DNA of 31,450 nucleotides from an uncultured Gammaproteobacteria bacterium (GTDB lineage Bacteria; Patescibacteriota; Microgenomatia; UBA10105; UBA927), in the NCBI GenBank assembly GCA_964355865.1, contig CAYHFH010000001.1, positions 6,184 through 37,633 of the forward strand, in the 5' to 3' direction. Positions 3,216 through 7,163 of this stretch are shown piece after piece. Position 1 is the first letter of the stretch, and each line of letters begins with the position of its first letter. The translations under genes and the position numbers were made by a program. The notes beneath the pieces were generated by a model. It had not been told where the DNA came from, did not search any database, and saw nothing but the letters and a program-made list of their open reading frames with translations.

Positions 3216-4730
3216 TCACTTAATTATATACTCAGGGTTCGTCTTATACAATCTCGCTCCCCCGACGGAATGTTCAAGCATAATTCTCCCGGACTTTTCC
3301 ATATTTCCAATCGCCTCGTTCCAATGATCATTGGATTCAAGAATTTGTGTGAGCCATTGATCGGGCCGAGTATCGACTACAAGAAATGTTGCACGATTAT
3401 CAAAATCCAGCCACCAGCAGCCTGCGTGTCCGCACGTAGTCCCGAGCGGAGTCGAGGGATCAAAATCGTGCACCCGGGGCCAAACGAGGTAAATCTGGTT
3501 GCGGTGTGAAAGATGAGGGATCAAATTCTGCTGTGTCGCAACTGCGGCACCTGGGGGAACCAATGCAAATAATCTACGATTATCCTCCATCCACGCCTCC
3601 TTCTTCCAGTACTCTGCCTTTACTAACTTATTCAGTGGCAAATGCCAAATGTATTGAAGGACAAGAGCAACTCCTAAAAGCACTACCGCCGCCCGCTGTG
3701 GCGCAATCCTCCATCGCTTGAGAAATACAAGCGCGTCGAGGGCTCCAAGAGTCAGAAACACGCCCAGCGTCGCGCGGTGGTGCATAAACGGACTCCACAT
3801 GCGGCTAAACTCCGGGCCAGTCACAAAATACTGTGCGAGGTCAAAAAAAATTGCGAGGATCGCCCCTGGGGCAAGAATGGGTAAAAATGCAAAACTTGCA
3901 AATGTATACCACCAAACCTGACGTTTCTCCTCTGAGTCGAAAAACTGCTGCAAGATAATCACGGGGTTAGGCGATATCTGCGGCCAATATTGGAAGCCGG
4001 TGGGAGAAAAACTCGCCACAACTTTTGACGCCAAAAGGCTAAAACCAACCCCGCCAATGATAAACGCTATCGCCATGAGGCGGAATTTCTTATGAAAAAA
4101 ATAGATAAATCCCAACGAGGCAAGCGCGATCCCCATATTCTCCTGCGTCAGGAGTAGCAGGATTATTGAGATGATCAACCATTTGATTTTCCCTGATTCC
4201 AAAAAATATGCTATCCACACCAGGAGCCCAACCCCAATCACCACGGGATGAAAATCAAAGTAAACAAGGTACTGGATGCCATAAAAGAGGCTATAAATAA
4301 CCGCGAGACACAGAGCGATTATGCTACTTTTCTTGTCATCCTCGGGCTTGACCAGAGGATCCAGCTTACTATCTCCAAATCTAATTCTTGCAATCTTATA
4401 AATAGCGAGCGCCGAAAAGCTTATCCAAAAGGCTTGGAAAATAAGAAGCATCCGGACATCATCCCAAAGCCAGAAAAGCGGTGCGAGGAGCGGAAGTGTG
4501 AGCGTCAGGTGATCACCCAAAATAAACCGGTCTTTGATGGTATTGTACGGCCACTGAAAATTCGCATACTGCCAGACCGCTTGGTCATATAACCCCAAAT
4601 CAAACCCCCCGGATTGAAAGTGATTATGCCGTACTATCGACAGCGTGCTATACGCTATAGATAAACCAATAACCCAGCAAAGAAGAATAGTTTTTGTATT
4701 TTGCTTAATGAAAAAAGAGATTGATTTCAC
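3216..4730 (-). CDS. DUF2079-like multi-pass membrane protein (putative GT-C fold glycosyltransferase)
   Basis: 504 aa with many TM segments. H.HFQSGGFDLGLYDQAVW, LGDHLT, FDFHP and QENMG motifs are typical of DUF2079 as recalled. Confidence 0.75.
   Translation of the reverse strand: MKSISFFIKQNTKTILLCWVIGLSIAYSTLSIVRHNHFQSGGFDLGLYDQAVWQYANFQWPYNTIKDRFILGDHLTLTLPLLAPLFWLWDDVRMLLIFQAFWISFSALAIYKIARIRFGDSKLDPLVKPEDDKKSSIIALCLAVIYSLFYGIQYLVYFDFHPVVIGVGLLVWIAYFLESGKIKWLIISIILLLLTQENMGIALASLGFIYFFHKKFRLMAIAFIIGGVGFSLLASKVVASFSPTGFQYWPQISPNPVIILQQFFDSEEKRQVWWYTFASFAFLPILAPGAILAIFFDLAQYFVTGPEFSRMWSPFMHHRATLGVFLTLGALDALVFLKRWRIAPQRAAVVLLGVALVLQYIWHLPLNKLVKAEYWKKEAWMEDNRRLFALVPPGAAVATQQNLIPHLSHRNQIYLVWPRVHDFDPSTPLGTTCGHAGCWWLDFDNRATFLVVDTRPDQWLTQILESNDHWNEAIGNMEKSGRIMLEHSVGGARLYKTNPEYIIK
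3223..3228 (-). promoter_or_regulatory. Candidate internal -10 box (TATAAT) for ileS
   Basis: Perfect TATAAT 12 nt upstream of the ATG at 3210, within the end of the upstream CDS. Confidence 0.4.
3436..3459 (+). repeat. GTAG-tagged REP-like imperfect palindrome inside the DUF2079 CDS
   Basis: GTAG TCCCGAGCGGAGTCGAGGGA; encodes PSTPLGT on the minus strand. Confidence 0.65.
4334..4362 (+). repeat. (C/T)GTC-tagged REP/RPE-like palindrome inside the DUF2079 CDS
   Basis: TGTC ATCCTC G GG CTTGA CC A GAGGAT CC: stem ATCCTC/GAGGAT plus GG/CC; encodes LDPLVKPEDD on the minus strand. Confidence 0.75.
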
Positions 4731-5972: not shown

Positions 5973-7163
5973 CTAGCTTCTTTGACGCAGAAATGCAGGA
6001 ATATCAAATTCGTCTTCCTCCGGCGGGAGATCGTCGGCAGGATATACGCTCGCGGGCTTGGGTTGCGGCTGTACGGTTCGCGTTTGAGTAGAATCACTTA
6101 CGACCGAGGTCGCGGGTCTCGTAAATGTCGTGGGAAGCCCTCCATCAGCACGGACATAGGCGCCCATTGCCGGCGCGGGCCGGCCGGAAAGCTCACGCAG
6201 TCTCTTTTTTGTCTCATCAAATCCTGTCGCGATCACCGTAATTCTGATCTGATCGACAAGACTCTCATCGATCGTGGCTCCAAATATGATATTGGCGTCC
6301 GGATCGACTGCGGAAGCAATCTGCTTGGCCGCTTCATCAACCTCTGCCATCGTGAGGTCGCTTCCTCCGGTGATATTAAAGAGGACTCCCTTGGCGCCTT
6401 CGATGGAAATTTCCAGAAGCGGCGACGCAATGGCGGTCCGGGCCGCCGTCGCGGCACGGTTTTCTCCGACTCCGGTGCCGATGCCCATGAGCGAACTTCC
6501 GGCATTGGTCATGATCGACCGAACGTCAGCAAAATCGACGTTGATGAGCCCCGGCATCGTGATGAGATCGGATATCCCCTGCACACCTTGGGAAAGTACG
6601 GAGTCGGCGACACGGAACGCTTCCAGAAGCGTCATCTTTTTATCGATGACTTCCAGTAACCGCTGATTGGGGATGACGATGAGCGTATCCACTTTATCCT
6701 TGAGAGTCATGATGCCTTCTTCGGCAGACACCATGCGCCGCGCGCCTTCAAAATGGAATGGTTTGGTCACGACGGCCACCGTGAGCGCTCCCATTTCTTT
6801 GGCCAGTTCCGCGATGACCGGGGTGGCACCCGTCCCGGTGCCGCCGCCTTCGCCGCACGTCAAAAATACCATGTCCGTATCACGCAAAAACTCTTTAAGT
6901 TTTTCCTTGGATTCCTCCGCGGCCTGCCGGCCAATGTCCGGGTTGCCACCGGCCCCTAAGCCACGGGTAAGATTTTCACCGATCTGTATTTTCGTCTGGG
7001 CTTGACAGGTCAGAAGCGCCTGCGCGTCACAATTGACGCCCAAAAAGTCCACGCCATTAATCTGGTTGAGCGTGATCATCGAACTAATTGCGTTGCATCC
7101 TCCACCGCCGATACCGATGACTTTAATTTTTGCAAAGCGGGCGATATCCGGTTTAATGAGCAT
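5973..7163 (-). CDS. ftsZ: Cell division protein FtsZ
   Basis: [13 protein letters not shown], tubulin signature [18 protein letters not shown]7 loop, C-terminal DIPAFLR peptide. Confidence 0.99.

Follow-up and report, generated by a model that had tools for sequence, protein, structure and literature searches.

The closest described relatives of the repeat considered here are the CGTC-tagged REPs, for which Di Nocera, De Gregorio and Rocco (2013, BMC Genomics 14:522; PMC3733652) distinguished the families CGTC-1 to CGTC-4. A unit of this kind has the unpaired terminal tag CGTC, often TGTC, a stem of 8-9 bp with A-T and T-A as its first pairs, a loop of 4-5 nt and a short, likewise unpaired CCA tail. 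The units are frequently arranged as inverted dimers, occur inside genes as well, and have no dedicated tyrosine transposase (PMC3733652). For Rickettsia conorii the authors equate the CGTC-1 repeat with the element RPE-6 and CGTC-4 with RPE-4. Peptides encoded by such copies are given in the supplement of the same paper: VIPAKAGI, CYSRESRNP and DTVVKPRYD for R. conorii, and D(A/G)RVKP(A/G)HD for R. palustris. RPE-1 elements, palindromic selfish repeats found in frame within coding genes, have also been described (Ogata et al. 2000, as cited in PMC3733652 and PMC10969869).

A second related group consists of NTS and NTSvar, Ssn-related motifs that flank the gene ssnA (Chenal et al. 2025, Nat Commun 16:2388; PMC11893778). 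SsnA is a single-domain GIY-YIG nuclease that cuts single-stranded DNA beside the hairpin, enzymes of this type being placed in CDD cd10448, and NTS modulates transformation in Neisseria. The published Ssn work deals with binding and cutting, not transposition; the IS-like layout is merely noted (PMC11893778).

The DNA analysed here, referred to as the window, is a stretch of 31,450 nt (contig CAYHFH010000001.1, positions 6,184 to 37,633 of the forward strand, assembly GCA_964355865.1). The genome that holds it, G000, is a draft of 1.06 Mb in 147 contigs with 47% G+C and is 88% complete. Its lineage is CPR, Candidatus Gottesmanbacteria. The features of the window with which this report is mainly concerned are the following.

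3216-4730, minus strand: host gene, encoding a DUF2079 family membrane protein of 504 aa (open reading frame list and Pfam PF09852, E 4e-49).
4334-4364, plus strand: REP unit, with tag TGTC at 4334-4337, 5' arm at 4338-4346, loop CTTGA at 4347-4351, 3' arm at 4352-4360 and tail CCAG at 4361-4364.
4354, plus strand: stem-breaking substitution, A in the window and C in the five perfect copies of the genome and in the filled orthologues.
4335-4379, minus strand: in-frame insertion of 45 bases, codons F118-D132, FGDSKLDPLVKPEDD, relative to empty-site orthologues.

We read positions 4334-4364 as a decaying copy of a dispersed CGTC-tagged REP/Ssn-related unit (NTS/NTSvar type), brought in on a 45-base piece that is now part of the DUF2079 coding sequence, and put the probability of this reading at about 0.85. 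The unit is a member of that family, and it is an insertion relative to the orthologues of its host gene. The 45 bases are made up of the REP unit without its leading T at 4334 (30 bases) and an A/T-rich tail of 15 bases. Because this length is a multiple of three and the frame is open, the insert is presumably translated, being read through as FGDSKLDPLVKPEDD.

The host gene lies in a conserved order Fic - DUF2079 - IleRS, which is the same at the orthologous locus L007. A search yielded 449 homologues of its product, and those that are named all belong to Candidatus Gottesmanbacteria; the original prediction had spoken of a DUF2079 protein in a probable CPR genome, and both descriptions hold. 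The plus strand at 4334-4362 reads precisely as it was quoted there, and on the minus strand it translates to LDPLVKPEDD, residues L123-D132 of the protein. A position between two membrane helices had also been proposed. The AlphaFold model (mean pLDDT 78, pTM 0.81) agrees, with helices at residues 92-119 and 129-154 on either side of the insert. Since pLDDT falls below 50 at residues 121-127, the 15 extra residues are modelled as a flexible loop together with the beginning of the following helix.

The hairpin in the window, ATCCTC.GG / CC.GAGGAT around the loop CTTGA, consists of six pairs, a 1x1 mismatch, two more pairs and the 5-base loop, so that 8 of the 9 consensus stem pairs are retained. 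Its folding energy is -6.0 kcal/mol. The z-score is -2.5 for the 29-mer and only -1.7 for the 35-mer, and 3 to 24 of 200 shuffled sequences fold as well or better; the palindrome taken by itself is thus within chance. A perfect unit is considerably more stable, at -11.2/-12.1 kcal/mol versus -6.0/-5.2 for the window copy, with z near -5. The difference is due to the substitution at 4354, which halves the stability of the window hairpin. On the coding strand it turns codon 126 from CGG (Arg), the codon kept at loci L007 and L012, into CTG (Leu). The window copy is a singleton, with no dimer partner.

Recurrence of the core across the genome is what marks the palindrome as non-random. The 28-base core GTCATCC..GGATCC occurs in G000 in five perfect copies with a 9-bp stem and in three copies with one or two mismatches, among them the window copy, which is one base off the perfect unit (A for C at 4354); the reversed-sequence control contained none. 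The consensus of this subfamily is ATCCTCGGG / CTTGA / CCCGAGGAT, with a 9-bp stem and a 5-nt loop. The idea of a chance palindrome in a native, lineage-specific loop draws on the weak fold of the hairpin alone, and we give it almost no credence. Seven other copies within two mismatches are found in 1.06 Mb against none in the controls, the copies have tag, tail and tail extension in common, and the closest orthologues have a clean empty site of 45 bases. The copy census and the orthologue alignment together rule this reading out.

The subfamily is part of a larger population. Directly following GTCA[TC], 104 hairpins were detected in G000, and about 90, spread over 68 loci, truly belong to the family; the reversed-sequence controls gave 0. 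T precedes GTC in 86 of the 104 hairpins and C in 11; 81 have the tail CCAG and 7 have CCAT. The typical form is a TGTC tag, an 8-9-bp stem beginning with AT, a loop of 4-5 nt and a CCAG tail. Beyond the tail, 83% of single units continue as CCAGnnT and then into A/T-rich sequence. Inverted dimers make up 22 of the 68 loci; their tags point outward, the spacer measures 17-36 bases, and the two hairpins are usually unlike. The search pattern suggested in the original prediction, GTCATCC-N(10-14)-GGAT, misses its own site, where the gap is 15; when the gap is widened to 10-16 it returns 60 matches in the genome, mostly clear family members.

This family shows every structural feature of the CGTC-tagged REPs: the tag in its TGTC variant, the 8-9 bp stem starting with AT, the 4-5 nt loop, the CCA tail, dispersed copies, inverted dimers of unlike partners and copies within genes. 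As with them, no tyrosine transposase gene flanked by its units was found, the four complete Y1 genes of G000 having been examined. It also encodes short peptides in open reading frames, of the forms VIPAKAGI and D..VKP..D. Some G000 copies encode exactly the first, and DPLVKPEDD of the window resembles DTVVKPRYD, a comparison made through the supplement peptides and the equation of families in that paper. The earlier likening to CGTC REPs and Rickettsia palindromic elements is supported by both the published structural definition and the encoded peptides, which are the same translations as those of the supplement; the peptide LDPVVKPRDD, named at that time, does not appear there. The G000 family differs in three ways. 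Gottesmanbacteria belong to a phylum (CPR/Patescibacteria) outside the five listed in PMC3733652, the share of loci deep inside open reading frames is high (about half), and the unit in the window stands alone and has lost a stem pair.

Among the Rickettsia elements, only the short RPE-4 and RPE-6 appear to be of the same kind as the G000 unit. RPE-1 is much longer (about 100-150 bp) and is unrelated to it in sequence. The likeness is one of behavior, in that both are in-frame palindromic selfish repeats tolerated in loops.

The units also resemble the neisserial motifs. The major subfamily of G000 fits NTS except for T in place of C at the first base: the NTS consensus CGTCATTCCCGCGMAVGCGGGAATCYRG has 1 exact site in this genome, 24 if Y is allowed as the first base, and 39 if ATYCCC is allowed as well. 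The subfamily of the window has the NTSvar layout, GTCAT.CTCGGG-N5-CCCGAG.ATC. For NTSvar (CGTCATACTCGGG-N5-CCCGAGTATC) the genome holds no exact site and 5 NTSvar-like ones; the window copy departs from it in the first base of the tag and in two stem pairs, one of which is its own broken pair. Reversed G000 contained neither the NTS pattern with Y as first base nor NTSvar-like patterns. The setting differs from that in Chenal et al. 2025, which treats intergenic clusters and transformation, whereas copies here are predicted to be translated.

Members of the family are not confined to this genome. Among the matches listed for the tag-loop-tail pattern in a search of one genome per species, most are from Alphaproteobacteria (Bradyrhizobium, Rhodopseudomonas, Rhizobium); Paceibacteria, another Patescibacteria genome, Muiribacteriota, Terriglobia, Udaeobacter, Sulfurovum and a Rickettsiales MAG are also among them. 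In a set of 41 genomes, the window's own and 40 relatives, the common subfamily was detected in 17 and that of the window in 12, with the highest counts in this genus. The relatives show compensatory stem variants. The literature on REPs in Patescibacteria/CPR and on peptides such as VIPAKAGI yielded no published report of the family in CPR. Both the kind of element and its occurrence in genes are already published, and the window copy adds a well-documented CPR case, not a new kind. A hairpin family that crosses phyla (Rickettsia RPE-4/6, Neisseria dRS3/NTS, alphaproteobacterial CGTC REPs) is seen to extend to a CPR lineage whose genome measures about 1 Mb.

Comparison of orthologues places the window copy as an insertion. 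In a protein alignment of 34 of the 449 homologues, FGDSKLDPLVKPEDD is absent from the closest orthologues, and at the DNA level the nearest relative, locus L006 (encoding P0002), has a clean 45-base gap at the site. The orthologue alignment proposed in the original prediction therefore comes out in favor of an insertion. The site is also empty at L008, L009, L010 and L011; the empty-site genomes include G001 and G003, of the same GTDB genus, and two more of the same family. The heptamer CGAGGAT in the empty sites of L008 and L009 was considered as a footprint or target and rejected, because its register does not match that of the filled alleles and because L006 and L010 lack it.

A simple sequence of events would account for these features. 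A REP unit with its A/T-rich tail, 45 bases in all, would have entered the DUF2079 coding sequence in a short inter-helix loop. Three circumstances would have let the insert survive: a length divisible by three, a reading frame without stop codons, and a loop able to accommodate 15 more residues. A later C to A change in one arm, replacing Arg by Leu, would then have weakened the hairpin.

The unit occupies the same codon position in three orthologues: the window protein, P0019 (genome G002, same genus) and P0021 (locus L007). In P0019 and P0021 the stem is perfect. In a tree of the whole protein with the insert columns removed, the window protein is sister to the empty P0002, and P0019 and P0021 form a separate, fully supported clade; for the whole gene, the AU test rejects the grouping of the three filled proteins (p 0.0002).

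A sliding comparison of 3216-4730 with L006, L007, L008, L009 and L012 reveals the DUF2079 gene as a mosaic produced by recombination. Over about 150 bases in mid-gene it is 98-99% identical to L006, and elsewhere 59-83%. All relatives are about equally near the window gene in its 5' third; in the middle, its identity is 75-99% to empty alleles and only 50-60% to filled ones. For the P0019/P0021 clade, identity is about 78% in the 5' third and falls to 50-60% in mid-gene. When the AU test is applied by part, the 5' part with the insert does not reject one origin (p 0.22) and the remainder rejects it (p 0.0002). Two independent insertions at one site, as taken from the whole-gene tree and its AU test, have accordingly been withdrawn as a conclusion. 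Since the gene is a mosaic and the 5' part gives p 0.22, readings with one and with two origins are both kept: the data are compatible either with one insertion that was moved or removed by homologous recombination, or with repeated insertion at a favored site.

Between the window and L007 the REP core is identical at 30 of 31 positions, and the flanking coding sequence is about 78% identical. Such conservation fits recent insertions of a homogeneous family or a constraint on the hairpin. It bears on the view that the insert has been kept as useful, either as a co-opted hairpin in DNA or mRNA (for example, an NTS-like recombination or uptake site) or as an acidic/basic peptide forming a functional loop. 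If there was one shared origin, the binomial probability of the 30/31 identity is about 0.004; the mosaic nature of the gene and the effect of NTS on transformation in Neisseria point in the same direction. We nevertheless consider this explanation unlikely. The change that broke the stem halved the stability of the window hairpin, the closest orthologues do without the insert, an unrelated palindrome fills the loop in other orthologues, and the high identity could equally result from recent or separate insertions of a homogeneous family.

That unrelated palindrome is a perfect one of 36 bases, with arms TTGACAAACATA and a CGCGG core, located at the same DUF2079 loop and translated as LTNITRSRYVCQW. 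It is carried by 7 of the 34 aligned orthologues, including P0003 and P0020 (L143:619-654, L142), and is not present in G000. Several DUF2079 orthologues also have pairs of units in three other loops, and these loops are clearly permissive. Two unrelated palindrome families at the same codon position in different Gottesmanbacteria, together with the mosaic gene, suggest a more speculative picture, which we hold to be doubtful: the first inter-helix loop of DUF2079 would be a recurrent landing and exchange site, where translated hairpins within the gene act as NTS do in Neisseria, as single-strand nuclease sites that steer recombination of incoming DNA, making and erasing in-frame insert alleles in CPR.

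A second, unrelated REP had been proposed in the same gene.

3440-3459, plus strand: the proposed second REP, encoding the peptide PSTPLGT, a distinct weak palindrome (fold z -0.8).

The difference between the two palindromes is real; as a repeat, this one has few copies and the evidence for it is weaker. The 20-mer has one other exact copy in the genome (C23) and three with 3 mismatches each. The loop that contains it varies in length among orthologues, being expanded by low-complexity Pro/Ser/Thr sequence in P0013 and P0018 and by hairpin-unit peptides in P0061.

The decaying REP copy in DUF2079 is one instance of a genome-wide habit of in-frame placement within genes. With a copy counted as in-gene when its open reading frame has at least 150 codons, with at least 40 upstream and at least 20 downstream of the unit, 35 of the 68 loci lie deep within long open reading frames. 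Five more are near the 5' end and six at the 3' end. Pfam matches were obtained for 7 of 10 host frames scanned: LepA, DnaX, AlaRS, three YfhO-like membrane proteins and an NPCBM-domain protein. The units are at codon 332 of LepA and at codon 401 of DnaX, in a linker. Roughly half of the loci are thus read through within genes, the essential lepA and dnaX among them. Translation by hand indicated that the common unit is open in 5 of its 6 frames, and all five are in use. At C33:4767-4836 in lepA a decayed copy of the window's subfamily (3 mismatches) is located beside a perfect unit of the common subfamily; this pair would be translated within an essential translation factor. Inserts of this sort enlarge CPR proteins and make them more diverse, annotation and alignment can be misled by them, and the filled and empty sites are useful as recombination markers.

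How the units are moved can be approached from the genes that they accompany. REPIN-RAYT systems (Bertels and Rainey 2011, PMC3116915; Nunvar 2010) also consist of short hairpins, often in inverted pairs and in tens of copies, and G000 likewise has HUH genes.

C16:8750-9421: Y1 (HUH) IS200-like transposase gene.
C67:4138-4884: Y1 (HUH) IS200-like transposase gene, reverse-complement coordinates of the contig.
C104:2500-3225: Y1 (HUH) IS200-like transposase gene.
C30:3635-4336: Y1 (HUH) IS200-like transposase gene.
C145:1-582: Y1 (HUH) IS200-like transposase gene, reverse-complement coordinates of the contig.

These five genes (loci L001-L005, 190-250 aa) score above the Pfam cut-off for Y1_Tnp, have the HUH and Tyr motifs, and match the NCBIfam model of REP-associated tyrosine transposases below its cut-off. 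Each of the four complete ones is bracketed by its own distinct palindrome, for example of the CCTCAAGGCC..GGCCTTGAGG type at C16 and the TTAGCTTCGCAAGG.. type at C67. The layout is that of RAYT or 'TIRYT' elements, and at least one such palindrome recurs elsewhere (next to C33:8181). The window repeat might on these grounds be taken for a classical REP/REPIN copied by the RAYT (IS200-like HUH) enzymes of the genome, all the more as roughly one locus in three is an inverted dimer, the arrangement seen in REPINs. We regard this as improbable. The TGTCAT...ATCCAG unit was found beside none of the complete Y1 genes (4 of 4 checked), the GTAG tag is missing, the dimers pair unlike hairpins, Di Nocera et al. 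2013 likewise have no tyrosine transposase flanked by CGTC units (PMC3733652), and in relatives it is GIY-YIG genes, not Y1 genes, that are bracketed. With their own unrelated palindromes around the four complete copies, the Y1/RAYT genes were rejected as the likely mobilizer.

The bracketed genes of relatives resemble the ssnA arrangement, with motif-gene-motif cassettes around a single-domain GIY-YIG protein of about 94 aa. A 94-residue GIY-YIG gene between inverted units was identified in G001:C15, of the same genus, and at G010:C8:175123; a paralogue at G010:C8:84337, 62% identical, is bracketed by CTTGA-loop units, the type of the window. Pfam detects the GIY-YIG domain alone in the cassette genes. 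The gene-less dimers share the layout of the cassettes, with a short spacer replacing the gene. A mobilizing enzyme of the Ssn type appears more likely than one of the RAYT type. The small GIY-YIG (Ssn-like) enzyme of the cassette would recognize the hairpin in single-stranded DNA, and we infer that the units spread, now or formerly, as gene-less miniatures of the repeat-nuclease-repeat cassette. G000 itself differs from the NTS/SsnA case in that no repeat-flanked GIY-YIG gene was found in its assembly of 147 contigs (88% complete). The one small GIY-YIG gene that it has, on C58, is unflanked and 41% identical to the cassette genes, and its 20 best relatives are likewise unflanked; this abundant paralogue group is probably not the partner. 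Small single-domain GIY-YIG genes (about 85-100 aa) are abundant in these genomes of roughly 1 Mb: of the 41 searched, 37 have between 1 and 14 matches each, most of them unflanked by hairpin units. The repeat-bracketed GIY-YIG genes of the relatives are candidate site-specific single-strand nucleases with new specificities.

Other repeats were observed in G000 along with this family. Five copies of a longer repeat (C42:2882-2950 and 6980-7046, C79:4301, C95:1531 and C99:73) are identical over about 25 bases ahead of a unit pair (..GTAACCGTTCACGAGTTGGCAAT followed by the dimer), which points to a larger repetitive element or to duplication of the end of a gene. Such units lie at or close to the ends of several contigs, so that the repeats probably fragment the assembly. 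A third repeat family, ..TTCGGCTTCGCTCAGG-GTCATCCTGAGC..GAAGGAT.., is set in runs of the heptamer GACTTTT at C34:5656, C45:6149 and C80:2816. The heptamer-plus-hairpin patches that had been noted, on first inspection of the window, in murF and other genes may derive from this third family.
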